Shown piece by piece: positions 7,918 to 31,585 of a stretch of 64,000 bases of DNA; within the stretch, counting starts at the first letter, position 1; the number at the start of each line of letters is the position of its first letter. The DNA lies in NCBI GenBank assembly GCA_012514235.1, contig JAAZAR010000159.1:1065-65064 (forward strand). Direction: 5' to 3'. A program made the position numbers and the translations under genes. The notes beneath the pieces are model-generated. The model did no database searches and was not told the origin of the DNA. It saw only the letters and a list, made by a program, of their open reading frames with translations. The stretch is from Actinomycetota bacterium. Its GTDB lineage: Bacteria > Actinomycetota > Thermoleophilia > UBA2241.

Positions 7918-8571
7918 TCATGCCTCGTCCCCGTACTCCTCTGGCCCGGGTCCGCCGTGCCGGCGCTTCTTCCGCCACCGCAGGCAGGCCCACACGAGCA
8001 CGACGACGATCGCCGCGACCACGGCATAGTCGGCGAGGTGCAGGTATTCCCGGATGTCCTCCCAGTGCTCGCCCAGACGCACGCCCACCCAGCCGAGGAA
8101 GAACACCCACGGGATGCAGCCGAGCACGGTGTAGAGGGTGAACTTCCAGAACGGCATCTTCGCGATGCCCGCGGGGAGCGAGATGAAGGTCCGGATGATG
8201 GGCAGCACGCGGCCGAAGAACACGGCGATGGGTCCGTACCTCTCGAACCAGCGCTCCGCCAGCTCGACGTGGTGATGGCGGAGCAGGACGTACTTGCCGT
8301 ACTTGTCGATGAACGGACGGCCGCCGTACAAGCCGACCCAGTAGGCGATCCAGGAGCCCACGAGGTTGCCGAGCACGCCGGCGACGGTGATCCCGAACAG
8401 GGTCATGTCGCCCTCGCTCACGGCGAAGCCGGCGAACGGCATGATCGCCTCGCTCGGCACGGGGATGCAGGCGCTCTCCAGCAGCATCAGGAAGAACACC
8501 GCGGCGAGGCCCCAGTCGCCGATGAGGGCGGTCGCCCACTGGACGACCGCGTCGATGACGGACTGCATCAT
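7918..8571 (-). CDS. DedA family membrane protein
   Basis: 'LESACIPVPSEAIMPFAGF...FGRVLPIIRTFISLPAGIAKMPFWKF' is the DedA/SNARE-associated pattern. I chose the start at MMQSVID. Confidence 0.85.
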   Translation of the reverse strand: MMQSVIDAVVQWATALIGDWGLAAVFFLMLLESACIPVPSEAIMPFAGFAVSEGDMTLFGITVAGVLGNLVGSWIAYWVGLYGGRPFIDKYGKYVLLRHHHVELAERWFERYGPIAVFFGRVLPIIRTFISLPAGIAKMPFWKFTLYTVLGCIPWVFFLGWVGVRLGEHWEDIREYLHLADYAVVAAIVVVLVWACLRWRKKRRHGGPGPEEYGDEA

Positions 8572-8692
8572 GCCGGGAAGCGTACAGTACGGGGCACCGG
8601 TGGGCGAACGTAGAGGCACCTGCTGCGGCGGACTGCCCCACGGGCTCTCCCGCGTCGAACCGGACTGGTAGCCCGTCCGCGACCGGCTATGG

Positions 8693-8735: not shown

Positions 8736-9833
8736 ATGGCCGTCGGACTCATGGACATCAAAGGGCAGTACGCCGAGCTGCAGGACCGCATAGAGGACGC
8801 CGTGCTGTCGGTCCTCCGCAGCGGCCGCGTCATCCTGGGGCCGAACGTCAAAGGGTTCGAGGATGAGGCCGCTGCGTATCTGGGCACCGCGGGGGCCGTC
8901 GGCGTGGCCAACGGCACCGACGGCCTGACCATCGCGCTGCGCGCGCTCGGCATCGGCGCGGGAGACGAGGTCATCACCGTGCCGTTCACGTTCTACGCCA
9001 CCCCCGAGGCCATCGCCCAGGCCGGCGCCAGGCCGGTGTTCGTCGACATCCTGCCGGACACGCTGACCATGGACCCGGACGCGATCGAGGCGGCCATCAC
9101 GCCGAACACCAAGGCCATCATGCCGGTCGACCTCTTCGGCCTCCCGTGCGAGATCGACGCTATCCGCAAGGTCGCGGACGCCCGCGGCCTGCCCGTCATC
9201 GAGGACGCCTGCCAGGCGTGGGGCGCGACCTACGACGGCCGTCGCGCCGGCAGCCTCGGCGATCTCGGCGTCTTCAGCTTCTTCCCCACCAAGAACCTGG
9301 GCGGTTTCGGCGACGGTGGGCTGGTCACGGGGCACGACGCGGACGTCGTGCAGCACGCCCGCGAACTCCGCTTCCACGGGAGCAAGGACAAGAAGACCTT
9401 CACCCACATCGGGTTCAACTCGCGGCTGGACGAAGTGCAGGCCGCGATCCTCCGCATCGAGCTCGGCGTGATCGACGAGTGGAACGGCCGCCGCGCTTTG
9501 GTGGCCGAGTGGTACGACGAGTACCTCCCGGACGAGGTCGTGCGACCGGCCGTCCCGGACGGCCTCACGCACGTGTACCACCTGTACGTCATCAGGCACC
9601 CGCGTCGCGACGACATCGCCGCCGCGTGCAAGGAGCGGCAGGTCGACTGCGCCGCCTACTACACCACGCCCATGCAGCTCCAGCCGGTGTTCGCCGACAT
9701 GGGCCACAAGCCCGGCGACTTCCCGGTCACGGACGAAGCGGCTGCGACCAACCTCGCCCTGCCCATGCACCCGAACCTCACCGAGGCTCAGGTCAAGGAG
9801 GTCGCGGCGGCCGTGGCGGCCGGGCTGGCCTGA
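8736..9833 (+). CDS. DegT/DnrJ/EryC1/StrS-family sugar aminotransferase
   Basis: 'DIKGQYAELQDRIEDAVLSVLRSGRVILGPNVKGFEDEAAAYLG', 'SFFPTKNLGGFGDGG' and 'LPMHPNLT' are typical of PLP sugar aminotransferases. Confidence 0.9.
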   Translation: MAVGLMDIKGQYAELQDRIEDAVLSVLRSGRVILGPNVKGFEDEAAAYLGTAGAVGVANGTDGLTIALRALGIGAGDEVITVPFTFYATPEAIAQAGARPVFVDILPDTLTMDPDAIEAAITPNTKAIMPVDLFGLPCEIDAIRKVADARGLPVIEDACQAWGATYDGRRAGSLGDLGVFSFFPTKNLGGFGDGGLVTGHDADVVQHARELRFHGSKDKKTFTHIGFNSRLDEVQAAILRIELGVIDEWNGRRALVAEWYDEYLPDEVVRPAVPDGLTHVYHLYVIRHPRRDDIAAACKERQVDCAAYYTTPMQLQPVFADMGHKPGDFPVTDEAAATNLALPMHPNLTEAQVKEVAAAVAAGLA

Positions 9834-9932: not shown

Positions 9933-11027
9933 ATGAGGGTCTGGGTCGACATCACCGATGCGTCGGCCGTCGTCTTCTTCGCGCCCATCGTGCGCCGGCT
10001 CGAGGACGCCGGACACACCGTCACGCTCACGGCGCGGCGCTTCGCCGGCGCCGACCTCGTCCTGCGGCGCTACGGCCTCAGCGGCCTCCTCACCACCAGA
10101 CACCGGGGGGGCGGCCTCGGCACCCGCGCCGTCGGCCTGGTCAACAGGACGGCGCAACTCCTGGGTTCCGCCGCGAGCGGCCGCTATCACGTGGCCGCCG
10201 GAAGCCACGCCACCGACTTCGTCCTCACCGCCTGGACGCTGGCGGTCCCGCAGATGACGTTCCTGGACCCGGACCGCATCGGGCGCAGCAACCTGATCAA
10301 CGCGCGGCTCGTGGACGAGGTGGCCGTCCCCGAGGCGGTGCCCGTCGCCGGTCTCGCCGAGCTCGGCGCCACACGCGACAAGCTCTTCCGCTATCCCGGG
10401 TTCAAGGAGGAGTACTACCTTCACGACGCGCAGCCGGACCCGGACGTGCTGACGCGGCTGGGGATCGAGCGCCGGCGCATCGTGGGCGTCGTGCGACCGC
10501 CAGCGCCGCCGATGCGCCTGCCGGCGGGCGACGCCGTACCGGCAGGCGAGGAGGCCCTCGTGCGGCTCATCGCCGGCCTGGCCGGCCGCCGCAACCTCGC
10601 GCTGGTGGTCGTGGCCCGGGACCAGGAGCAGCGCCGGCGCTTCCTGGGGCTGAGACTGCCCGGCACGCTCGTCCCCGACGGCCCGGTGGACGGCGCCGGC
10701 CTGCTGGCCGCCGCCGACTTCGTCATCGGACTCGGCGGCGTCATGCTGCGCGAGGCCGTCGCGCTCGGCACGCCCGCCTACACGCTGGCGCCCTCGGCCG
10801 GACCGGTCGAGGCATCCCTGCTGGCCAACGGCCGGCTCAGACAGGTCGCGGTCCCCGGCGACGTGATCGTGCGCAGGAAGGACCTGCGCACGGCGCTCTC
10901 ACCGCCTCGTGACCCCGCGCTCTTCGTCGACCGGCTGCTGGACCTCGCGCACCGCCGCTCTCGCCGTGAGCGCCTCGGTCGTGTTGTGCACGACACGTCG
11001 CGCAAGGACCCACCGCCGCTCCTGTGA
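9933..11027 (+). CDS. DUF354-family protein (GT-B/epimerase-like fold, function unknown)
   Basis: 'MRVWVDITDASAVVFFAPIVRRLEDAGHTVTLTARRF' and 'FRYPGFKEEYYLHD..PDPDVLTRLGI' match the DUF354 pattern. Confidence 0.75.
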   Translation: MRVWVDITDASAVVFFAPIVRRLEDAGHTVTLTARRFAGADLVLRRYGLSGLLTTRHRGGGLGTRAVGLVNRTAQLLGSAASGRYHVAAGSHATDFVLTAWTLAVPQMTFLDPDRIGRSNLINARLVDEVAVPEAVPVAGLAELGATRDKLFRYPGFKEEYYLHDAQPDPDVLTRLGIERRRIVGVVRPPAPPMRLPAGDAVPAGEEALVRLIAGLAGRRNLALVVVARDQEQRRRFLGLRLPGTLVPDGPVDGAGLLAAADFVIGLGGVMLREAVALGTPAYTLAPSAGPVEASLLANGRLRQVAVPGDVIVRRKDLRTALSPPRDPALFVDRLLDLAHRRSRRERLGRVVHDTSRKDPPPLL

Positions 11028-11065
11028 GCCGCTCTCGCCTCGTTGAGCGGCTCACCTGAGTGCGA

Positions 11066-11071
11066 TAAGCT
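11066..11071 (+). promoter_or_regulatory. candidate -10 box TAAGCT (leaderless lysR-type gene)
   Basis: The box ends 6 nt before the ATG at 11078, in a local AT-rich patch 'GATAAGCTTTCCTT'. Confidence 0.3.
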
Positions 11072-11077
11072 TTCCTT

Positions 11078-12025
11078 ATGGATCTTCGCCAACTCCGCCT
11101 GTTCTGCCGCATCGTGGACCGCAAGAGCTTCTCCCTGGCGGCGGACGAGATGCACATCACCCAGCCCGCCGCGAGCCAGCAGGTCCGCAGTCTCGAACGC
11201 GAGCTCAAGACCGTCCTCCTGGACCGCTCGCGCCGCACGGTCGTCCCCACCGACGCCGGCCAGGTGCTCTATCGCTACGGCCGGGAGATCCTGGATCTCG
11301 ACGAACGTGCCCGCACCGAGATCCTCGACCTCGGCGAGCTCGTCGCCGGCCGGGTCGTCGTCGGCGCGTCGACGGGACCGGGCGACAACGTGCTGCCGCC
11401 CATGCTGACGGAGTTCAAGCGCGCCTTCCCCGGCGTGTCCATCGCCCTCCATGTGGACGACACCCACGCCGTGATCGAGCGCGTCCTCTCGCGGGAGTTC
11501 GAGATCGGCGCGGTCGGCGCCGTGACGCCGCGCCCCGAACTGATCGCCGAACCGCTGGCACGCGACGAGATCGTGCTCGTGTGCTCGCCCACGCATCCGT
11601 GGGCCTCGCGCGAGATGGTCACGCTCGATGAGGTCGTGGCCGAGCCGCAGCTCATGCAGCAGCGCGGCGCCGGCGTACGCATCGTCGTCGAGGACCATCT
11701 GCGCCGCGCCGGCGTGCGTCCCGAGCGCCTCAACGTCGTCATGGAGATGGGCCTCATGGAATCCGCCAAGCAGGCGGCCATCGCCGGCGGCGGCGTGACG
11801 TTCCTCAGCAGCTGGGCGATCGAGCCCGACGTCGAGCACGGCACGCTGAGCGTGGTGCCGATCGAGGGCTTCCGCATCCTCCGGGACTTCTACACGGTGC
11901 GCTCCAAGACGCGAGTGCTGAGCCGTGCCGCCGAGGCGCTGCTCGCGTTCTTCCGCGAGCGGTACGCCGAGGCCGATGGCGGCTCGCCGCCGGGAGCGTC
12001 AGCGGCCGGCTCCGCCGGCCGCTGA
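11078..12025 (+). CDS. LysR-family transcriptional regulator
   Basis: An N-terminal wHTH 'LRQLRLFCRIVDRKSFSLAADEMHITQPAASQQVRSLERELK' followed by a LysR substrate-binding domain. Confidence 0.9.
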   Translation: MDLRQLRLFCRIVDRKSFSLAADEMHITQPAASQQVRSLERELKTVLLDRSRRTVVPTDAGQVLYRYGREILDLDERARTEILDLGELVAGRVVVGASTGPGDNVLPPMLTEFKRAFPGVSIALHVDDTHAVIERVLSREFEIGAVGAVTPRPELIAEPLARDEIVLVCSPTHPWASREMVTLDEVVAEPQLMQQRGAGVRIVVEDHLRRAGVRPERLNVVMEMGLMESAKQAAIAGGGVTFLSSWAIEPDVEHGTLSVVPIEGFRILRDFYTVRSKTRVLSRAAEALLAFFRERYAEADGGSPPGASAAGSAGR

Positions 12026-12085
12026 GCCGGGCTCGTGGCCACCGCCGGGGAGGCTCGCAGAGGCCCTCCCCGCCGGGCTGTCTGG

Positions 12086-12091
12086 TACCAT
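12086..12091 (+). promoter_or_regulatory. candidate extended -10 (TGgTACCAT) upstream of comA-like gene
   Basis: Located 48 nt upstream of the ATG at 12140, just after the lysR stop. Confidence 0.3.
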
Positions 12092-12139
12092 CAAGCGGGC
12101 GCCGGCCGAGCGGCGCGACGACACTGGAGGGATGATCCG

Positions 12140-12892
12140 ATGTTCGAGTTCCTGACGCTCCCCGAGCGCACCGACAAGCCGCGTGAGAGCGGACTCACGC
12201 ACGTGCTCGACAAGGGGCTGAGCCTCGAGCAGGCGCGCCAGTTCCTCGAGGTCTCGGGCCGGTACGTGGACATCGTCAAGCTCGGCTGGGGTACTGCCGT
12301 CGTCACGCCGAACGTCAAGGAGAAGATCGCCCTCTACCAGAGCTACGGCATCCCGGTCAGCTTCGGCGGGACCTTCTTCGAGGTCTGCTTGCGCCAGGGC
12401 AAGCTCGACGAGTTCCTGGCGCTGGTCGACGAGTGCGGCATGACCTGCGTGGAGGTCTCGGACGGCACGATCGACATGGAGGAGGCGGACAAGCTCGCGA
12501 TCATCCGCAAGCTCAGTGCGCGCTACAAGGTGCTGAGCGAGGTCGGGAGCAAAGACGACGCCGTCACCATCACGCCGTCCCGCTGGGTCGAGCTCATCGG
12601 CCGCGAACTCGAGGCCGGCGCCTGGAAGGTCATCACCGAGGGGCGCGAGAGCGGCACCGTCGGCATCTACCGGCCCAACGGCGACGTCAAAGACGGTCTC
12701 CTCGAGGAGATCAAGGAGACCTTCGACACGACGCAGATCCTCTTCGAGGCGCCGGTGAAGAAGCAGCAGGCCTGGTTCATCAAGCAGTTCGGCACCAACG
12801 TGAACCTCGGCAACATCCCGCCCGACGAGGTCATCTCGGTGGAGACGCTCCGCCTGGGCGTGCGCGGCGACACGCTGCTTACGTTCCACTGA
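12140..12892 (+). CDS. comA: (2R)-phospho-3-sulfolactate synthase (ComA family)
   Basis: 'LPERTDKPRESGLTHVLDKGL...VDIVKLGWGTAVV...VEVSDGTI...EGRESGTVGIY' matches the ComA pattern. The ATG at 12140 is preceded by GGAGGG. Confidence 0.85.
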   Translation: MFEFLTLPERTDKPRESGLTHVLDKGLSLEQARQFLEVSGRYVDIVKLGWGTAVVTPNVKEKIALYQSYGIPVSFGGTFFEVCLRQGKLDEFLALVDECGMTCVEVSDGTIDMEEADKLAIIRKLSARYKVLSEVGSKDDAVTITPSRWVELIGRELEAGAWKVITEGRESGTVGIYRPNGDVKDGLLEEIKETFDTTQILFEAPVKKQQAWFIKQFGTNVNLGNIPPDEVISVETLRLGVRGDTLLTFH

Positions 12893-12901
12893 CCAAGCCC
12901 G

Positions 12902-13495
12902 ATGCTCTACCTCGCCCGGCACTGCCAGACGGACTGGAACCGAGAGCCCGCGCGGTGCCAGGGCTGGGCCGAGACAGAGCTCAACGAGACGGGCCGCGGC
13001 CAGGCGCGCGATCTGGGTCGCGCGCTCGAGGACCGCGGCATCGAGCTCATCGTCACGAGCCACCTCGTGCGGGCTCGCGAGACTGCCCGGATCGTGCACG
13101 AGATGCTCGGCGCCCGACTCCCGCTCATCGTCGATCCGCGCCTTGCGGAGTCGCACCGCGGCGAGTGGGAGACGCGCCGCTTCTCCTCCATCATCCGCAA
13201 CCAGCCCGAGACCTGGGCGCACTACCACGAGCACCCGGAGACGTTCCGCTTCCCCGGCGGCGAGAGCCTCGCGGCGCAGCAGCGCCGGGTGCTGGCCTGC
13301 CTGCGCGACTGCGTCCTGGACGGCCGAACCGCCCTCCTTGTCACGCACGGCGGCAGCATCCGCCTCGTGCGGTGCTTCCTCGACGGGAAGGGGATCGAGG
13401 CGTTCCACACCGCCACGACGACCCCCGGCGAGCTGCATGAGATCGTCACGGAGCGTCTTGCGGAAGACATCGCCTCTTACCTCGAGAAGAGCTGA
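12902..13495 (+). CDS. histidine phosphatase (phosphoglycerate-mutase-like) family protein
   Basis: N-terminal 'LYLARHCQTDWN' (an RHG-type motif variant), 'SHLVRARETA', and a distal 'LLVTHGGSIR'. It starts 9 nt after the comA stop. Confidence 0.8.
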   Translation: MLYLARHCQTDWNREPARCQGWAETELNETGRGQARDLGRALEDRGIELIVTSHLVRARETARIVHEMLGARLPLIVDPRLAESHRGEWETRRFSSIIRNQPETWAHYHEHPETFRFPGGESLAAQQRRVLACLRDCVLDGRTALLVTHGGSIRLVRCFLDGKGIEAFHTATTTPGELHEIVTERLAEDIASYLEKS

Positions 13496-13641
13496 GGCGC
13501 CCGCGTCGGACGACGAGCGGGCGGGCGCCGCAGAGGACCCCCGATGCCGGGGATGCGTTCGGGCGCGGGGCCCGAGGGTACCTCCCTGTGGTATCCTTCG
13601 AGGCCGGGCAGCGCCCACGTTCGTCGCTGCTCATCCAGCTG

Positions 13642-14940
13642 ATGACGTCCGACACGCCCACACCCCCCACAGCAGGCGACCCCACGCCTGACGACGCATC
13701 GCGTCCGTCCGTCAGCGGCGATGGGCGAGGCGAGCCGCTCCCCGAGCCCGGTGAGCCGGGCTACCCGCGCGGCTCGCAGGAGGCGCCGGCCATCGAGACG
13801 ACCGAGCCGGCGCCGGCAGGTTCGCTCAAGCTCAAGGACCGCGTGGTCCCGAGCCCGCCCGAGATGGACGCCGGAGGCGGGCGGGCCTTCTGGTTCGTCT
13901 TCGCCCTCATCGTCGTCACGGCGCTCGTCATGGGCGGGGTGCTTGCGCTCAACGTCATCGCGGACCCCTACGGCTCCGTCGGCACGCACTTCTTCCCCAC
14001 GGTCACGACGTCGGACAGGACCGTCAAGGCCGACAAGATCGAGGGACTGAAGGAGCTGCCGCAGCTCGTCGTGCTCGGCAGCTCGCGCTCCATGCGCTAC
14101 GAACCGGAGTACCTCAAAGAGAAGACGGGCCTCAGCACGTTCAACGCAGGGGTCAACGGCATCGGCGGCACGGCCGACGCCTGGGCCATGACGCAGTTCA
14201 TCCACGACACCTGGCCGCAGGCTGACCCCGAGTACCTCTGGCTGCTCGACGTCGAAGCGTTCGTGCCGTTCGCGGTCGGCGCGCGCACCGCCAACGAGCC
14301 GCGCATGGCCCAGTACGTGGGCCAGGCGACCGTCGGCAAGGGCGCCGACGAGTTCGCGCGTGCGCTCTGGCAGAACCGGTCCACCCTGTTCTCCCTGGAC
14401 ACCGCCTACGATTCCGCGCGGCTGCTCCTCTACCGCGAAGAGGCCAAGAGCAGCCAGAGCAAGTACCGCAAGCAGATCCTGGACGACGGCGTCCTCAAGC
14501 CGCGCAAGTGGAGCCAGAAGGAGTGGGACCGCCGCTGGCCCAACTCCATCGAGCGGTACAGCAACCTGCACAAGAACGTGTACAAGGGGCTCGACCCGAC
14601 GGCCCAGGAGTACTTCGAGAAGACGCTCGCCTTCATGAACGACCAGGGCAAGACTCCGGTCGTGGCGCTCACGCCCCTCAACCCGAAGCTGCACACGATC
14701 CTGGCACCGCTCGGGTGGGACGACCGTCACGAGGAGGTGGTCGCCTACCTCGAGTCGCTGCACGACGACCACGACTTCGTGCTCCTCGACATGACCGACC
14801 CCCGCGTCTTCGACTACGACAAGCGGGAGTGGTACGACGGCGTGCACATGACCACGGTCAACACGCGGCCGGCGATCGACTACATCATCGCGCAGACCGG
14901 CGGCTGGCCGCCGGAACAGCCCAGGACGGATGGCGAGTAG
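13642..14940 (+). CDS. membrane-anchored DltD/SGNH-like protein (partner of MBOAT)
   Basis: A single TM 'FWFVFALIVVTALVMGGVLAL' followed by 'PQLVVLGSSRSM', which resembles the DltD GSS motif. It sits directly upstream of the MBOAT gene. The start is ambiguous between GTG 13588 and ATG 13642. Confidence 0.55.
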   Translation: MTSDTPTPPTAGDPTPDDASRPSVSGDGRGEPLPEPGEPGYPRGSQEAPAIETTEPAPAGSLKLKDRVVPSPPEMDAGGGRAFWFVFALIVVTALVMGGVLALNVIADPYGSVGTHFFPTVTTSDRTVKADKIEGLKELPQLVVLGSSRSMRYEPEYLKEKTGLSTFNAGVNGIGGTADAWAMTQFIHDTWPQADPEYLWLLDVEAFVPFAVGARTANEPRMAQYVGQATVGKGADEFARALWQNRSTLFSLDTAYDSARLLLYREEAKSSQSKYRKQILDDGVLKPRKWSQKEWDRRWPNSIERYSNLHKNVYKGLDPTAQEYFEKTLAFMNDQGKTPVVALTPLNPKLHTILAPLGWDDRHEEVVAYLESLHDDHDFVLLDMTDPRVFDYDKREWYDGVHMTTVNTRPAIDYIIAQTGGWPPEQPRTDGE

Positions 14941-14951
14941 GCCCGGCGCGC

Positions 14952-16355
14952 GTGCTGCTCAACAGCTACAGCTTCCTGCTCGTCTTCCTGCCGACCGTCG
15001 TCATCCTGTACTGGCTGGTGCCGCGAGGCTACCCGCGCCTCGTCTTCCTCATCGTCGCGTCGCTCGTCTTCTACGGGCTGTGGGACTGGCGCTTCATCCC
15101 GCTGCTGCTCGCGACCACGCTCACCGACTGGGTCGCCGGACGGTACCTCGCGAAGAGCGAGGCGGAGGGTGCGAGCCGCCGCCGCAAGCTGATCCTGGCG
15201 GCGGCCGTCACGGTGAACCTCGCGTTCCTCGGCTACTTCAAGTACCGCGGCTTCTTCGTCGAGCAGTTCGACGGCATCCTGCAGCTGCTCGGCGCCGGCG
15301 AGCCGCTGCCGGCGCTCAAGCTGCTGCTGCCGATCGGGATCAGCTTCTACACCTTCGCCGGCATCTCGTACGCCGTGGACATGTACCGCGGCCAGTACAG
15401 GCCGGCGAAGAGCGTGATCCACTATCTCGCCTGGGTCACGCTCTTCCCCTACATCCTGGCCGGTCCCATCATCCGCTACGGCCACGTCGGCGAGCAGCTC
15501 GAGCAGGCGCGCCAGCGCCTTACGTGGGCGCTCGTCGGCTCGGGCCTGTTCTTCCTCGCCATGGGCGCCGCCAAGAAGATCCTGGTGGCCGACATGATGG
15601 CGCCGTACGTCAACGAGCTGTTCTCGCACCATGCGCATCTCGGCCTTTGGTCCGGCTGGGCGGCCGCTCTCGGCTACACGCTGCAGCTCTACTTCGACTT
15701 CTCCGGCTACAGCGACATGGCCGTGGGCGTGGCGCTCCTGATCGGCCTGCGCTTCCCGCAGAACTTCGACTCGCCCTACAAGGCGATCAATCCCTCGGAC
15801 TTCTGGCGCCGCTGGCACATGACCCTCTCCGGCTGGCTGCGGGACTACCTCTTCATCCCGCTCGGCGGGTCACGCGGCTCGACATGGCTCACGGTGCGGA
15901 ACCTCATGATCACCTTCCTGCTCGGCGGTCTGTGGCACGGCCCCGCCTGGACGTACGTCTTCTGGGGCCTGCTCTGGGGTCTCTATCAGTCGGTCCACGT
16001 GGTGGCCAGGAAGTACGGCCTCACACCGACGTGGGTGTGGCTGAACCGCATCCTGACGTTCCTCGGCGCGGTGGTAGCCTTTGTGTTCTTCCGCGCGTCC
16101 TCGCTCCGGGCTGCCAAGGACGTGCTCGAGTCGATGGCGGGGCTTCAGGGAGTGAGCGGCGAGGACATCCTGCCCGTGGCGCCGCTGCTGGGCGCGTTCG
16201 TCGTCGGCGGTCTGCTGTGGGTCAACCTGCTGCCCAACACGTGGGAGATCCAGCCGCGGCCCAAGCTGCGTTACGCACTGGTGCTGGGCATCCTGCTCGC
16301 CGCCTCGCTGCTCGCCCTGAGCAAGCCGAGTCCGTTCCTCTACGTGCAGTTCTAG
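14952..16355 (+). CDS. MBOAT-family membrane O-acyltransferase (AlgI/DltB/PatA-like)
   Basis: 'NSYSFLLVFLP', 'FDFSGYSDMAVG', 'FWRRWHMTLSGWLRDYLFIPLGGSRG' and 'LLGGLWHG' are MBOAT hallmarks. I chose the GTG at 14952. Confidence 0.9.
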   Translation: MLLNSYSFLLVFLPTVVILYWLVPRGYPRLVFLIVASLVFYGLWDWRFIPLLLATTLTDWVAGRYLAKSEAEGASRRRKLILAAAVTVNLAFLGYFKYRGFFVEQFDGILQLLGAGEPLPALKLLLPIGISFYTFAGISYAVDMYRGQYRPAKSVIHYLAWVTLFPYILAGPIIRYGHVGEQLEQARQRLTWALVGSGLFFLAMGAAKKILVADMMAPYVNELFSHHAHLGLWSGWAAALGYTLQLYFDFSGYSDMAVGVALLIGLRFPQNFDSPYKAINPSDFWRRWHMTLSGWLRDYLFIPLGGSRGSTWLTVRNLMITFLLGGLWHGPAWTYVFWGLLWGLYQSVHVVARKYGLTPTWVWLNRILTFLGAVVAFVFFRASSLRAAKDVLESMAGLQGVSGEDILPVAPLLGAFVVGGLLWVNLLPNTWEIQPRPKLRYALVLGILLAASLLALSKPSPFLYVQF

Positions 16356-17588: not shown

Positions 17589-18707
17589 ATGGCCGCCGAC
17601 CTGGACAGCCACGCCTGCGACGCCCGCTTCCCGGGCCTGCAGGCGGTCCGCCTCATCAGGCGGGCGATCGACCACGCGCGCCTGGACCTCAAAGGGCTGC
17701 GCGTGCTCACGGAGGCGTCCGTCGGCTACCGCCGCGTCGCGCCGGTCGTCGCGGCGCTGGCCGGCGCGGACGAGGTGTACGCGGTGGGACGCGACAGCGT
17801 CGCCGCCTCGCGCAAGGAGGCCGAGGAGCAGACCGCGTACTTCGCCGAGATCGCCCACGTGAGCTCACGGGTGAAGCTCCTTTCGACGCGTCTGCAGGCG
17901 CCGCTGGAGGCCGTGGACATCGTGACGGACCTGCCCGGCGTGCGTCCGGTCGACGAGTCGGTCCTGCGCACCATCGCCGATACCGCCGCCGTCGCGCTGC
18001 TACACGGCACGGCGCACTGGCGTGCCTCCGACGTGGACGTCGCCACCTGCCGTCGCCACGGCATCGCGGTCGCCGCGCTGGACGAAGAAGCCATCGGCCT
18101 CTACCGCTACACGCCGCTGGGCGTCCTCGCCGGCCTGCTCGACCTGGCGGTCGAGGTCGCCGGCTCGACGGTGGTCATCGCCGGCGAGGCGCCGTGCGTG
18201 CCCTACGTGGTCCAGGCGTTGACGCGCCTCGGTGCGCGCGTCCTCGTCGCCGCGCCGCAGACGGCAGGCCGCATCGAGCTCTTCGGCGGAGAGAAGGCCG
18301 GGGATGCAATCGGCGACGACGGCGTCCTGGGGCGTCTCGCCGAGGCGGACGCTCTGGTGCTCTGCCCGGCCGCCGACGTGCGCACTGTCGGCCCCGGCTC
18401 GCCCGTCGACGCAACTCTCTTCGCAGCCGCGGCGCCGCACGTCGCCGTGGTCGGTGTGGACGCCGAGAGCGACCTGCGGGCGCTCGCTTCGGCCGGCTTG
18501 CGCTGCCGCCCGGCCGGCGGCCCCGCGGGCGAGTCCGACCTGCTCCCGCAGGCGGTGATCGCCCGTCACGCTGCCGCCCTCAAGGTAGCCGCGACCATGA
18601 CTCGGGCGCGAAAGCGCGGCTCGTCGCCGCTCGCCGCAGAGCAGCTCGCCGCCGCAGAAGCCCACGCCGAGCTGTTCCCCAAGGACCTGAGCGCCGTCCG
18701 CCGCTGA
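17589..18707 (+). CDS. hypothetical protein (372 aa, Ala/Val-rich, possibly Rossmann-like)
   Basis: A long GC3-biased ORF with no motif I can name. Confidence 0.55.
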   Translation: MAADLDSHACDARFPGLQAVRLIRRAIDHARLDLKGLRVLTEASVGYRRVAPVVAALAGADEVYAVGRDSVAASRKEAEEQTAYFAEIAHVSSRVKLLSTRLQAPLEAVDIVTDLPGVRPVDESVLRTIADTAAVALLHGTAHWRASDVDVATCRRHGIAVAALDEEAIGLYRYTPLGVLAGLLDLAVEVAGSTVVIAGEAPCVPYVVQALTRLGARVLVAAPQTAGRIELFGGEKAGDAIGDDGVLGRLAEADALVLCPAADVRTVGPGSPVDATLFAAAAPHVAVVGVDAESDLRALASAGLRCRPAGGPAGESDLLPQAVIARHAAALKVAATMTRARKRGSSPLAAEQLAAAEAHAELFPKDLSAVRR

Positions 18708-23524: not shown

Positions 23525-24717
23525 GGGTCCTCGTCGTCTCGCACCTGTACCCCTCCCCGGGCGTGGAGCGCCACCTGTTCGTGCACGAGCAACTGCTGAC
23601 GCTCCGCGAGCTCGGCGTGGAGCCGCACGTGATCTCGCCGACGCCGTGGGTGCCGCGGGTGCTCTGGCGCGACGAGCGCCAGCGGCGCCGCGGCGAGAAG
23701 CCCAGGCAGGCGGTCCGCGACGGCATCACCGCCGACTACCCACGCTTCGTCCAGCCTCCCAAACGCCTGCTGTTCGACCGCCTGGGCGACATCGCCTACA
23801 GGAGCGCGCGCTCGCTGCCGTCAGTGACCGCCGGGGGGTGGGACCTCATCCACGCGCACCAGGCGCTGCCGGACGGTGCCATGGCGCAGCGCCTGGCCGC
23901 CGACCTGCGCGTGCCCTGCGTCGTCACCGTGCACGGCGCCGACGTGTACCAGCACCTGCGCATGGGCGGCGGCGTCGAGAAGCGCGCCAAGGCGGTACTC
24001 GCCGCCGCCGACGCCGTGATGGCCAACTCGAGCGCCGTCGCCGGCCTGCTCGAGCGCGTGGTCGCGCCTGAGAAGCTCACCGTGGTGCTCAACGGGACGA
24101 CCGGCCTCGGCGAGTCGGTCGAGCCGGCGAGCGACTACCTGCCCGGCGAGCCCCTGGTACTGACGGTCGGGTACCTCATCGAGCGCAAGGGCATCCGCGA
24201 CCTCGTGGCGGCCCTGGGCTTGCTGCGCCGCCAGGGCCGCACCGTCCACCTCGCCATCGCCGGCGACGGGCCGCTGCGTGGCGCCCTGCAGGCGCAGGCC
24301 GCGCAGGAGGGCGTCGCCGACACCGTCCACTTCCTCGGCCGCGTGCCTCACGCGCGCGTGCTCGCACTCATGGCGCGCGCGCAGCTGGTGGCCTTGCCCA
24401 GCTGGGACGAGGCGTTCGGGCTCGTCTACACGGAGGCGATGGCGCAAGGCACGCCCGTCGTCGCCGGCAAGGGAGAGGGCCCCGAGGATTTCATCACCGA
24501 CGGTGAGAGCGGCTACCTCGTCCCGGTTCGCTCGCCCGATGCGCTGGCGAGTATCATTGCGCAGGTGCTGGACGACCCGGAGAAGGCCGCGGCCGTCGGC
24601 CAGGCCGGCCGCGCCGCCGCCCTCGAGCTGAGCTGGGAGCGCAACGCGCGGCTCACGCTCGGCGTGTACGAGCGCGTCCTCGCCGAAGCACCCCGAAAGG
24701 ACGCCAGTGCGGTTTGA
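23521..24717 (+). CDS. glycosyltransferase, GT4
   Basis: 'VRVLVVSHLYPSPG', 'HAHQALPDG' and 'EAFGLVYTEAMAQGTPVVAG'. The GTG start overlaps the upstream stop (GTGA). Confidence 0.85.
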   Translation: MRVLVVSHLYPSPGVERHLFVHEQLLTLRELGVEPHVISPTPWVPRVLWRDERQRRRGEKPRQAVRDGITADYPRFVQPPKRLLFDRLGDIAYRSARSLPSVTAGGWDLIHAHQALPDGAMAQRLAADLRVPCVVTVHGADVYQHLRMGGGVEKRAKAVLAAADAVMANSSAVAGLLERVVAPEKLTVVLNGTTGLGESVEPASDYLPGEPLVLTVGYLIERKGIRDLVAALGLLRRQGRTVHLAIAGDGPLRGALQAQAAQEGVADTVHFLGRVPHARVLALMARAQLVALPSWDEAFGLVYTEAMAQGTPVVAGKGEGPEDFITDGESGYLVPVRSPDALASIIAQVLDDPEKAAAVGQAGRAAALELSWERNARLTLGVYERVLAEAPRKDASAV

Positions 24718-25927
24718 CACGTTCGTACAGCAGTCCGCGGCGCGCCACCCGGCGCTCGTGTTCCAGGTCTCCTGGGCCAACGGCCTCGACATCATCCGTG
24801 ACCTCTCGGCCGAGGGCGTGCCGCTCCTGGCGCTCGACGCCAACGAGCGCGCCCTCGGCCTCCGCTCCCGGCTCGCCGCCGGCATGGTCTGCCCGGACCC
24901 TCGGGCGGACGAGGAGGCGTTCGTCGGCTTCCTCGAGGACCTCGGTCGCCGGCTGCCGTGCAAAGGCGTCCTCTTCCCGACCCACGACCAGTACATCTGG
25001 CCGATCTCGAAGCACGCGGAGCGCCTCGAGCCCTACTACTTCATCCCGTTCTCCCGCTGGGAGACCATGCGGCGCCTGCACGACAAGCGCGCCCAGATGG
25101 AGGCGGCCTGGCGCGTGCACGTCGATACGCCGAAGACCGTGTTCGTCGACTCTGCCGAGGATCTCGAGCGCGGCGCAGAGGTTGTCGGCTTCCCCTGCAT
25201 CTTCAAGCCCGTCGAGTCGCTGGCGTTCAAGACGCGCTTCCGGCGGCATGTGCTGGAGATCGGGTCCGCCAAGGAACTGCGCGAGACGTACGCCAAGGTG
25301 GACGATTGCGGTACGCTGATGATGCAGGACATCGTGCCGGGCGGAGACGAGGAGCTCTACACGCTGGGCTCGTACCTCGACGTGCAGAGCCGGCCGCTGG
25401 CCGTGTTCACCGGGCACAAGCTGCGCCAGCACCCGCCGCGGTTCGGCCACGTGAGCATGGCGGTGAGCCGCTGGGTGCCCGAGCTCGCCGAGGCGGGGCT
25501 CCGTCTCCTCGGCGAGCTCGGCTACCACGGCGTCAGCCAGGTCGAGTTCAAGCGCGACCCCCGTGACGGCAGGTACCGTCTCATGGAAGTCAACGCGCGC
25601 CACTGGATGTGGCATTCGCTCGCCACCGCCTGCGGCGTGAACCTCTCGCTCGCCGCCTATCGCGACGCCATCGGCGAGCCCTACATGTCGGCGCACCAGG
25701 TGGATGGGCTCAAATGGGTGGTCTCGTTCACCGATGCCCGCGACGCGTTCAGGCGCTGGCGTCGCGGCACGGAGAAGCTTCTGCCGTGGCTCGCGAGCTA
25801 CCGCGGCGTACGTGTCGACGGGCTGTACTCCCTCCGCGACCCCCTGCCCGGCGCGCTGATGACGGCGCGCCAGCTCAGGAACATCATCCGGCGCAGCGGC
25901 AAGCCGGCCGAAGGGGAGTCGGTATGA
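24707..25927 (+). CDS. ATP-grasp carboxylate-amine ligase-like protein (paralog 1)
   Basis: 'FPCIFKPVESLAFK', 'LMMQDIVPGGDEELYTLGSY', and 'HGVSQVEFKRDPRDGRYRLMEVNARHW' (an ATP-grasp Mg/ATP motif E..N). It overlaps the upstream gene by 11 nt. Confidence 0.75.
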   Translation: MRFDTFVQQSAARHPALVFQVSWANGLDIIRDLSAEGVPLLALDANERALGLRSRLAAGMVCPDPRADEEAFVGFLEDLGRRLPCKGVLFPTHDQYIWPISKHAERLEPYYFIPFSRWETMRRLHDKRAQMEAAWRVHVDTPKTVFVDSAEDLERGAEVVGFPCIFKPVESLAFKTRFRRHVLEIGSAKELRETYAKVDDCGTLMMQDIVPGGDEELYTLGSYLDVQSRPLAVFTGHKLRQHPPRFGHVSMAVSRWVPELAEAGLRLLGELGYHGVSQVEFKRDPRDGRYRLMEVNARHWMWHSLATACGVNLSLAAYRDAIGEPYMSAHQVDGLKWVVSFTDARDAFRRWRRGTEKLLPWLASYRGVRVDGLYSLRDPLPGALMTARQLRNIIRRSGKPAEGESV

Positions 25928-25967
25928 ACGCGCCGCTGGCGGCGCGCCGCTCCGGAAGGCGCGGACG

Positions 25968-27182
25968 ATGAGGCCGGAGCGGTTCTTCCGGGCGGCGGCC
26001 GCGAAGCCGCCCGCCGCCGTCTTCCAGGTCAGCTACTCCTGCGGCCTGGACATCCTGCGCGACCTCGGGCGCCACGGCGTGCCCATGCTGGCGCTCGATC
26101 CGGACCCCAAGGCGATAGGCCTGCGCTCGCGCTACGCCGCCGGCCGGGTCTGCCCCGACCCGCTCGTCGACGAGGAGGCGTTCCTCATCTGGCTGGAGAC
26201 GCTCGGGCGGTCGCTCCCGCAGCGCGCCGTCGTCTTCCCCAGCCACGACGAGTTCATCTGGCCGCTCTCGCGCTACGCCAGGCGGCTCGAGCCCTGGTTC
26301 ATCGTGCCGTTCTCTCGCTGGGACGTGATGAGCAAGGTGCACGACAAGCGCGCCCAGCTGGAGGCGGCCTGGCGCGCCGGCGTCGACACGCCGAAGACCG
26401 TCTTCGTCGGCTCCGGCGCGGAGCTCCAGGCCGCGGCCGGCCAGATCCGCTTCCCGGCGGTGCTCAAACCGGTCGAGTCGCTGGCGTTCAAGCTCCGCTT
26501 CCACCGCCACATCCTCGACGTCGCGACGCCGGACGACCTCGCACGCATCTACGACAAGGTGGACGATCTCGGCCTCCTGATGCTGCAGGAGCGCATCCCC
26601 GGAGGAGAGGACGAGCTCTGGACCGTCGGGTCCTACCTGGACGCGGAGTCGCGGCCGCTCGCGATGTTCACCGGCCACAAGCTGCGGCAGTACCCGCACG
26701 CCGGCGGCAGCTGCCTCGCCGGAGTGAGCCGCTGGGACCAGCGGCTGGCCGACGCCGCCCTGCGGCTGCTGCAGGAGCTCCACTTCCACGGCGTCAGCCA
26801 GGTGGAGTTCAAGCGCGACCCGCGGGACGGCCGCTTCTGCCTCATGGAGATCAACGCGCGGCACTGGAAGTGGCACGGGCTCGCCGCACAGTGCGGCGTG
26901 AACCTCTCGTTCGTCGCCTATCGAGACGCGATCGGCGATCCGTACCTCGCCCACCGGCAGCGGGACGGCGTCAAGTGGATCGTCGCCAACAAGGACGTGC
27001 CGCTGGCGCTGCTCGAGATCGCGAAGCGCGAGCGCAACGCCGGCGAGTACGTGCGCTCGCTGCGCGGCACACGCATGGACGGGCTGCACGCGATCGACGA
27101 CCCGCTGCCTGGCCTGCTCAATGCCGGCGCCGTGCTCAGGCAGGTCGTGACGCGCGCGCCGCGCGCGAGGGCGGACGTGTGA
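25968..27182 (+). CDS. ATP-grasp carboxylate-amine ligase-like protein (paralog 2)
   Basis: Collinear with paralog 1 over its full length ('FPAVLKPVESLAFK', 'HGVSQVEFKRDPRDGRFCLMEINARHW'). The two also share DNA-level similarity. Confidence 0.75.
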   Translation: MRPERFFRAAAAKPPAAVFQVSYSCGLDILRDLGRHGVPMLALDPDPKAIGLRSRYAAGRVCPDPLVDEEAFLIWLETLGRSLPQRAVVFPSHDEFIWPLSRYARRLEPWFIVPFSRWDVMSKVHDKRAQLEAAWRAGVDTPKTVFVGSGAELQAAAGQIRFPAVLKPVESLAFKLRFHRHILDVATPDDLARIYDKVDDLGLLMLQERIPGGEDELWTVGSYLDAESRPLAMFTGHKLRQYPHAGGSCLAGVSRWDQRLADAALRLLQELHFHGVSQVEFKRDPRDGRFCLMEINARHWKWHGLAAQCGVNLSFVAYRDAIGDPYLAHRQRDGVKWIVANKDVPLALLEIAKRERNAGEYVRSLRGTRMDGLHAIDDPLPGLLNAGAVLRQVVTRAPRARADV

Positions 27183-30541: not shown

Positions 30542-31585
30542 ATGACGCTGCCGCCACTCAAGCTCGTCCTCACCGCCGCCGGCTGCCCCGGAGCCAGCAC
30601 GCTGATCCGCATGCTCAAGGCCAACGGCGAGCGGGAGATCGTCATCCACGGCGTGGACATGCGCCCCGACGCCGTGGGACGGTTCCTGTGCGACGGCTTC
30701 AGCATCGTCCCGCCGGGCGCCTCGCCGGACTACATCCAGGCGCTCGCCGAGGTGGTCGAGCGGGAGCGGCCGGACCTGCTCTTCGTCCAGAGCTCGCACG
30801 AGATCGAGACGGTGGCGCGCCACCGCGACGTGTTCGAGGCGCTCGGCGCCCGCGTCCTCGCGGACGGCGTGCGCGGCATCGAGATCGCCTCGGACAAGGC
30901 GGTCATGCATGCCGCCTGCTCCGAGATCCCGGTGCCGCAGCCGGTGCTGCTGCGGCCGGCGACCCTCGAGGAGTTCGTCGCCGGCGCCCACGAGCTCGGC
31001 TACCCGGACGTGCCCGTGTGCTTCAAGCCGCCGGTCGCCAAGGGATCGCGGGGCTTCCGCATCCTCTCGGCGGAGATCGACCGCGTCCACGAGCTGCTCC
31101 ACGAGAAGCCGATCAACCGCTACATGACGCTCGACGACTTCGTCGACCTCTTCACCGGCTACGAGCCGTTCCCGCAGCTCATGCTGATGGAGTACGTCGA
31201 CGCCCCCGAGATCACCGTCGACCTCTTCGCCGACAAGGGGGAGGTCGTCCTCTACCAGACGCGCACGAGAGAGGAGTTCCTCACCGGGCTCGCCATGGCC
31301 TTCAAGACCATCGACCGCCCGGACCTCGTGGAGCTGACGCGCAAGGTCGTACGGCACCTCGACCTGGACTACTACCAGAGCGTGCAGTGGATCGGCGGCA
31401 AGCTCCTGGAGATCAACCCACGCGTCAGTACGTTCGTGTACCAGGAGGACTTCATCATCCCGTACCTCGGCATCAAGTACACGCTCGGTGAGCTGGACGC
31501 CGACGACGTGGCCGACATCCAGGCGCGGGTGCGCACGAGCCGGCGTTCAGTACGCTACTACGACCAGGTCTTCTGGGACGACTGA
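30542..31585 (+). CDS. ATP-grasp domain protein (CPS-large-subunit-like ligase)
   Basis: 'KLVLTAAGCPGASTLIRMLK', 'VCFKPPVAKGSRGFRIL', 'LMLMEYVDAPEITVDLF' and 'KLLEINPRVS' follow the ATP-grasp pattern. Confidence 0.75.
   Translation: MTLPPLKLVLTAAGCPGASTLIRMLKANGEREIVIHGVDMRPDAVGRFLCDGFSIVPPGASPDYIQALAEVVERERPDLLFVQSSHEIETVARHRDVFEALGARVLADGVRGIEIASDKAVMHAACSEIPVPQPVLLRPATLEEFVAGAHELGYPDVPVCFKPPVAKGSRGFRILSAEIDRVHELLHEKPINRYMTLDDFVDLFTGYEPFPQLMLMEYVDAPEITVDLFADKGEVVLYQTRTREEFLTGLAMAFKTIDRPDLVELTRKVVRHLDLDYYQSVQWIGGKLLEINPRVSTFVYQEDFIIPYLGIKYTLGELDADDVADIQARVRTSRRSVRYYDQVFWDD

Follow-up and report, generated by a model that had tools for sequence, protein, structure and literature searches.

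One question raised by this locus is what a gene for a ComA-type phosphosulfolactate synthase does when it stands between the genes of a LysR-family regulator and a histidine phosphatase, in the midst of envelope-glycan genes, in an uncultured soil actinobacterium of the class Thermoleophilia. The locus lies in a stretch of 64,000 nucleotides (nt) of about 70% G+C, analysed as a whole and here called the window, which belongs to a metagenome-assembled genome (MAG) of 2.7 Mb in 164 contigs, 78% complete. The answer that we arrive at is graded. A LysR-controlled ComA-phosphatase cassette probably makes free (R)-3-sulfolactate, with a phosphatase of the dPGM type acting in the role of ComB. That this sulfolactate is destined for the envelope glycan is a more tentative suggestion, while a sulfolactate cassette serving envelope glycopolymer decoration is, taken as a whole, the explanation that we regard as the best on balance.

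The three genes are arranged head to tail on the same strand, as co-directional open reading frames:

11078-12025, plus strand: LysR-family regulator (HTH_1 76 bits, LysR_substrate 172 bits)
12026-12139, plus strand: spacer between LysR and ComA; a GGAGG ribosome-binding site precedes the ComA ATG by 8-9 nt
12140-12892, plus strand: ComA (PF02679, 309 bits)
12902-13495, plus strand: His_Phos_1 histidine phosphatase of the dPGM/PhoE branch (PF00300, 154 bits)

Family identities were assigned from Pfam and NCBIfam profile scores of the window proteins, in bits against the respective cut-offs, and real frames were picked by third-position GC content (GC3), which at 0.91-0.92 in the LysR, ComA and phosphatase frames is typical of real genes in a genome of 70% GC. 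A previous sequence-only reading of this DNA had named the same three families, with a co-directional LysR gene and a 9-nt spacing between ComA and the phosphatase; the profile scores (172, 309 and 154 bits) bear out the identities, and coordinates, orientation and spacing are all reproduced, the TGA stop codon of ComA ending at 12892 and the ATG of the phosphatase lying at 12902. It had also credited the gene pair with a candidate promoter of its own, which did not survive, a consensus scan of positions 10900-13700 finding no sigma-70-type promoter and no terminator. A GC-rich hairpin following LysR in the spacer was dropped as a real feature, its fold being no better than that of shuffled sequence (z = +0.72).

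The ComA product matches PF02679, the profile by which the sequence-only reading had proposed to check it, at 309 bits against a cut-off of 25.2 and over the full length of the model (positions 1-243 of 243). The equivalog model TIGR03849 is narrowly missed (268.6 bits against a cut-off of 280). The protein can be aligned over its whole length with the solved structures from B. subtilis (1u83, 195 bits) and M. jannaschii (1qwg, 184 bits), and the blocks KxGWGT, GGTxFE, EVGxK, EGRESG, FEAPxKxQQ and ETLRxGxRxDT are common to all of them. From its family membership it is predicted to be a (2R)-phospho-3-sulfolactate synthase, which would join sulfite to phosphoenolpyruvate to give 2-phospho-3-sulfolactate as the first step of the proposed route.

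The second step would fall to the adjacent phosphatase, which matches only PF00300 and has neither the profile (PF04029) nor the fold of ComB. It scores under every NCBIfam equivalog cut-off, the best match being CobC (TIGR03162, 123.5 bits against 162.9); an identity as the CobC alpha-ribazole phosphatase was rejected on this score and on a gene context that is not one of cobalamin. A homology search returned only close relatives (68-82% identity), annotated generically as PhoE or phosphoglycerate mutase. The closest solved structure is that of Geobacillus PhoE (1ebb/1h2e, 85 bits), and GpgP of M. tuberculosis (4pz9) is also among the solved relatives. With these two enzymes and CobC the window protein shares the fold and the catalytic set (an Arg-His nucleophile, a second His, an Arg and a Glu), the catalytic residues R6, H7, R57, E83 and H149 being conserved in 98-100% of 80 relatives. 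It differs from them not only in remaining under the equivalog cut-offs, but also in belonging to a Thermoleophilia clade defined by the ComA neighbour and in its catalytic motif, RHC instead of RHG (Gly8 to Cys), a change seen in the window protein and three relatives. Four further arginines (R86, R116, R129 and R154) are conserved in the clade. The classic ligand of the dPGM fold is 2,3-bisphosphoglycerate, to which the putative substrate, 2-phospho-3-sulfolactate, would be nearly isosteric, the sulfonate replacing the 3-phosphate. From this chemistry and from the operonic pairing we propose that the protein is a phosphosulfolactate phosphatase replacing ComB, which would strip the 2-phosphate via a phospho-histidine.

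The support for this predicted partnership of ComA and phosphatase comes wholly from comparative genomics. The window phosphatase and four homologues that adjoin ComA in another family of the class were aligned to serve as the query against one genome per prokaryote species, and the counts given here refer to the best 80 loci, all of them from Thermoleophilia. These loci were fetched with the phosphatase query alone, ComA playing no part in the retrieval. Nevertheless, ComA lies directly upstream and on the same strand in 75 of the 80, with a median spacing of 23 nt (range -3 to 99), over a span of ComA identities reaching from 91% down to 46%. Since just 42 of the 401 genomes sampled from the phylum have a ComA at all, the adjacency is far above chance, and the co-occurrence that had been put forward as a check is thus found in other genomes.

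How the second enzyme is distributed bears directly on the proposed role of the phosphatase. The route had previously been described as possibly independent of ComB, and for this genome the description fails, because a canonical ComB (PF04029, 206 bits) is encoded on contig C70, where its neighbours are a metallophosphoesterase, a B12-radical-SAM gene and BacA, and a second ComA is encoded on contig C153. The ComB gene is unlinked to the window ComA, so that the adjacency of the YitD/YitC type or of archaeal comA-comB is not found here. Across the 50 genomes with the ComA-phosphatase module, ComB is present in only 10 and absent in 40; it is patchy among the closest relatives as well, one copy being a pseudogene. 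Two genomes (G427 and G435) possess, besides the ComA-phosphatase pair, another ComA, strongly divergent, with ComB immediately behind it, a third (G045) has the pair together with such a divergent ComA, separated by about 5 kb from a ComB, and in a fourth (G213) a divergent ComA-ComB pair stands beside an ordinary ComA. Since all four hold a separate, divergent ComA by ComB, each ComA would therefore have its own phosphatase.

The ComA tree has a corresponding shape. The window copy falls inside the phosphatase-linked clade of its own family, the phosphatase-linked copies as a whole form two Thermoleophilia clades, the ComB-linked copies make up a separate long-branched clade, and copies linked to a flavoprotein form a third clade. 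In the class sample, the genomes with a type-1 ComA that is not flavoprotein-linked all have the phosphatase, ComB or both, except one (G388), in which the only candidate is a divergent His_Phos gene that adjoins ComA in the opposite orientation; the five genomes with flavoprotein-linked ComA have neither ComB nor phosphatase. A distribution of this kind is what one would expect of the histidine phosphatase and ComB as alternative second enzymes. The non-orthologous replacement of ComB, as previously suggested, is thereby upheld in part: the conserved operonic partnership and the scarcity of ComB in genomes with the pair speak for it, and the ComB of the genome itself speaks against it.

The flavoprotein-linked arrangement deserves separate mention. 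In three loci of families f2 and f8 (L041, L042 and L043) a LysR gene, a gene for a FrdA/NadB/TfrA-like flavoprotein of about 410 amino acids and ComA are translationally coupled, and the order DegT - DUF354 - CapD - LysR - flavoprotein - ComA, without the phosphatase, is seen in family f2 and, in looser form, in f8. This layout suggests a different fate of phosphosulfolactate, for example via sulfoacrylate.

The second ComA of the genome (L005: 9992-10780 on C153, with neighbours traced to 14480) is 61% identical to the window copy and reaches 271 bits with TIGR03849. It is followed by genes for a GNAT protein and a class-III aminotransferase, with cysK (460 bits) and a MoaD/SAMP-like gene close by. 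A reading of the GNAT and aminotransferase genes as part of an ectoine (ectABC) cluster was rejected, the NCBIfam matches being generic and the neighbour being cysK; the region may instead be a separate cluster of sulfonate or sulfur metabolism.

An alternative that draws on the same facts is that the phosphatase acts on some other intermediate of a glycan pathway, either of the phosphoglycerate type or a sugar phosphate, in the manner of GpgP on glucosyl-3-phosphoglycerate, leaving phosphosulfolactate to the ComB on C70 or to an unknown enzyme. PhoE, the nearest relative of known structure, has broad specificity, GpgP is itself a phosphatase of a glycoconjugate pathway, and the canonical ComB in the genome could serve either ComA. 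Moreover, in five of the 80 loci (L101, L114, L119, L125 and L127) ComA is missing and the phosphatase directly follows a LytR_C gene; three of these genomes are without any ComA, and in a fourth ComA is reduced to a pseudogene interrupted by two in-frame TGA codons. Because the phosphatase looks catalytically intact in these loci, it may accept another substrate, for which phosphoglycerate would be an isosteric guess. The available ComB and the ComA-less loci with their intact catalytic residues tell also against the proposed ComB role, and to them must be added that the phosphatase carries no verifiable diagnostic signature of specificity, its public annotation being generic, that the 75 pairs do not represent 75 independent events, because they are largely inherited vertically within one class, and that absences in the genome are soft, because the MAG is only 78% complete. 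We nonetheless hold an unrelated substrate to be distinctly unlikely in view of the near-overlapping spacing in the 75 paired loci, of the 40 module genomes without ComB and of the fact that ComB, where it does adjoin a ComA, is paired with a different and divergent one.

A further possibility is that ComA serves coenzyme M synthesis, of which it is the first enzyme in methanogens, or runs in reverse, desulfonating (phospho)sulfolactate as a source of sulfur or carbon. A full coenzyme M pathway, which had been named as another way to account for comA, was looked for, and neither ComC (Ldh_2, PF02615) nor sulfopyruvate decarboxylase (ComDE, TIGR03845) has a match in the 78%-complete genome, Xcb-type bacterial coenzyme M genes not having been searched for. 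The reverse reaction is at odds with a partner that is a phosphatase rather than a kinase and would pull the reaction forward. Both variants are in our estimation highly improbable, and with no ComC or sulfopyruvate decarboxylase found to follow, sulfolactate looks like the end product of the proposed cassette.

To our knowledge, sulfolactate synthesis has been known in only two settings, the ComA/ComB steps of coenzyme M formation and the making of a spore solute in Bacillus. The methanogen ComA/ComB and B. subtilis YitD/YitC systems share with the window cassette the first enzyme and, through dephosphorylation of phosphosulfolactate, the same predicted product. They differ in that the adjacent phosphatase is here a member of the histidine phosphatase superfamily and not of the ComB fold (PF04029); moreover, a ComC/ComDE continuation is missing, the ComB of this genome is unlinked and the cassette is set in envelope-glycan loci. 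A precedent for a bacterial ComA with a second step other than ComB is provided by the Xcb coenzyme M pathway of Xanthobacter autotrophicus, in which phosphate is reportedly eliminated by an aspartase/fumarase-type lyase to give sulfoacrylate, whereas the window enzyme is predicted to act by hydrolysis and coenzyme M-type downstream genes, as far as they were sought, were not seen.

If sulfolactate is the product, the next question is where it goes, and here the neighbourhood becomes informative. The surrounding genes of the window are as follows:

7918-8619, minus strand: DedA
8736-9833, plus strand: DegT sugar aminotransferase (PF01041, 382 bits)
9933-11027, plus strand: DUF354 protein (PF04007, 100.6 bits), which we take from the Pfam classification to be a GT-B-clan protein
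13588-14940, plus strand: DltD-like protein with a weak DUF1574 match
14940-16355, plus strand: MBOAT acyltransferase (MBOAT 100 bits; DltB model 153 bits, under its cut-off)
downstream of MBOAT, convergent: glucosaminidase-like gene
beyond the glucosaminidase-like gene: Wzx-type flippase and ATP-grasp-rich glycan locus
17589-18707: conserved protein of 372 amino acids, no family match
24707-27182, plus strand: tandem ATP-grasp ligases (weak CPSase_L_D2/ATP-grasp matches)
30542-31585: third ATP-grasp

The flanks are thus those described before, DegT and DUF354 upstream, MBOAT and the ATP-grasp-rich locus downstream. In relatives of the same family the order is DegT - DUF354 - LysR - (C11 peptidase) - TauE/SafE - ComA - phosphatase - DltD-like - MBOAT, continuing after MBOAT with (PMT_2), a GH73-like gene and the conserved protein of 372 amino acids. 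Loci L048-L054 preserve ComA - phosphatase - DltD-like - MBOAT in this order, the DltD-like and MBOAT neighbours being confined to this family. The upstream DegT-DUF354 pair is found more widely, in families f1, f2, f4 and f8, usually together with a 4,6-dehydratase of the CapD/PglF type. A same-genus genome (G355) considered as a control lacking ComA proved uninformative for the glycan locus, its MBOAT region not being syntenic with the window. A paralogue of the DltD-like protein, 574 amino acids long, 25% identical over about 290 residues and without a Pfam match, is encoded on C153 (L005:4576-6300), about 4 kb upstream of the second ComA.

The pair occupies a different position, from which LysR and TauE are absent, in Solirubrobacterales, Conexibacter and Thermoleophilaceae. 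It forms part of a co-directional, tightly spaced string, (DegT - DUF354) - arylsulfotransferase-like or unknown gene - CapD/PglF - LytR_C - ComA - phosphatase, that continues with c2, an unnamed protein of about 600 amino acids with weak FlgD_ig/DMFA2_C matches, then Wzx and two to three GT2 genes or Wzy. The string from CapD through LytR_C, ComA, phosphatase, c2 and Wzx to GT2 is, as judged by its gene families, a predicted envelope-glycopolymer operon. The association of the pair with glycan loci in relatives, on which the sequence-only reading had staked its proposal, is accordingly present, and is tighter there than in the window itself. A tblastn search of the 78%-complete genome found no homologue of CapD/PglF, LytR_C or c2, so that its locus either represents the class-wide layout in reduced form or has the corresponding genes in the missing 22%. 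Among the genes not found, the 4,6-dehydratase of the CapD/PglF type would be the expected source of the keto-sugar substrate of DegT.

Many of the Solirubrobacterales strings are headed by an arylsulfotransferase-like beta-propeller protein (PF14269, 153 bits; L066:12-1562), a homologue of which, 37% identical, is encoded on another contig of the genome (C63:18973-20307). Together with the TauE/SafE genes of relatives, the arylsulfotransferase-like genes make up a sulfur theme, which we count in favour of a sulfolactate cassette serving the envelope.

The regulator has the N-terminal HTH_1 and the substrate-binding domain of the LysR family, and its best NCBIfam match is a LysR model associated with selenium metabolism (248.6 bits against a cut-off of 250). 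An orthologue lies upstream of ComA in other families at 41-48% identity and in relatives of its own family at 69-90%, and it is the probable regulator of the ComA module, with sulfite, selenite or a sulfonate as candidate signals. Between LysR and ComA, five of the loci (L049, L050, L053, L054 and L057) have a TauE/SafE gene (PF01925, 156 bits), of which a tblastn search of the 78%-complete genome found no homologue; one relative (L058) is likewise without TauE/SafE. The presence beside ComA of this family of sulfite/sulfonate exporters strengthens the sulfur assignment, and in the proposed scheme LysR, with TauE/SafE in the relatives, would make expression and export depend on the level of sulfite or sulfonate.

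The same position of TauE/SafE also supports a reading in terms of detoxification and export, in which the three genes would be an autonomous sulfite-handling module. LysR would sense sulfite or a related signal, toxic sulfite would be converted to inert sulfolactate, to be exported by TauE/SafE in the relatives or kept as a solute, as B. subtilis stores it in its spores, and the glycan genes would be mere neighbours. The presence of an own regulator fits such a module, as do the LysR-ComA linkage kept in families that otherwise differ and the second ComA adjoining cysK, a gene of general sulfur metabolism. It accords poorly with the Solirubrobacterales, where the pair does without LysR and TauE and is located in mid-operon between CapD/LytR_C and Wzx/GT2, with the conservation of the DegT-DUF354 neighbourhood over class-level divergence, and with the lack of that TauE in the genome itself. 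We therefore judge a sulfite module independent of the glycan genes to be rather unlikely, and return to a sulfolactate cassette whose product might, by a weaker chain of argument than the first two steps, decorate the envelope glycopolymer of the surrounding locus.

In this genome the decoration would plausibly be the work of ATP-grasp ligases forming an amide with an amino sugar. The first of the tandem ATP-grasp ligases (24707-25927) was searched in 34 genomes. In G435 and G427 its best match is the ATP-grasp gene of a ComA-ComB-ATP-grasp operon, where it overlaps with the tail of ComB, further matches numbering none in G427 and one, weaker, in G435; in G045 the best match lies 186 nt after ComB. 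In the reverse search the ligases of G435 and G427 match only the tandem pair of the window in its genome, and not the third ATP-grasp (30542-31585), the reciprocal best matches having 27-28% identity with E values of 1e-26 to 1e-32. This is suggestive of the tandem ligases as candidate users of sulfolactate, the link being circumstantial. The idea that ATP-grasp ligases of the locus attach sulfolactate has in this way gained ground from operons elsewhere while staying a suggestion.

The two operons (L128:8139-10893 on contig C3 of G435 and L129:8983-11974 on contig C63 of G427) each consist of a divergent ComA, ComB and an ATP-grasp gene (9700-10893 in L128) with overlapping stops and starts, and have as neighbours a methyltransferase, an SDR protein, a WYL regulator and a subtilase. 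Their probable product is an amide containing sulfolactate.

Several observations stand in the way of extending this to the envelope glycan. The identity of the reciprocal matches is low, the ComA-ComB-ATP-grasp operons lie outside glycan loci, one genome without ComA has a member of the same ATP-grasp subfamily, and the Solirubrobacterales strings have no ATP-grasp nearby and no identified attaching enzyme.

The closest precedent in print for a sulfonated decoration derived from ComA is the 2-sulfoacetyl group of misaugamycin-B, which is supplied through an actinobacterial ComA homologue by misNOPQ of the misaugamycin cluster; feeding with sulfite raised the sulfonated product (PMC9136965). 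The window differs in that the partner of ComA is a phosphatase and the putative target an envelope glycan. Literature searches found no pairing of ComA with a histidine phosphatase, no use of the term "sulfolactyl" and no description of a glycan bearing sulfolactate.

In its widest form, the proposal would be that sulfolactyl, a carbon-bonded sulfonate, is an undescribed anionic decoration of envelope glycopolymers, widespread in Thermoleophilia, whose synthesis would need ComA and a second enzyme, ComB or a dPGM-type phosphatase, and whose attachment to amino sugars would fall to a dedicated subfamily of ATP-grasp ligases, the histidine phosphatase being the first phosphosulfolactate phosphatase other than ComB. 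In this generality, the claim seems to us doubtful. If true in its enzymatic part, a second and unrelated phosphatase family would make the ComB step a clear example of non-orthologous displacement, and hundreds of generic "phosphoglycerate mutase/PhoE" annotations would be corrected. If sulfolactate is indeed carried on an envelope polysaccharide, the carbon-sulfonate, which is charged at any pH and is not hydrolysable by sulfatases, would join phosphate, sulfate ester, pyruvyl, succinyl and uronic acids among the anionic substituents, and sulfite metabolism would be tied to cell-surface chemistry in an abundant group of soil Actinobacteria.

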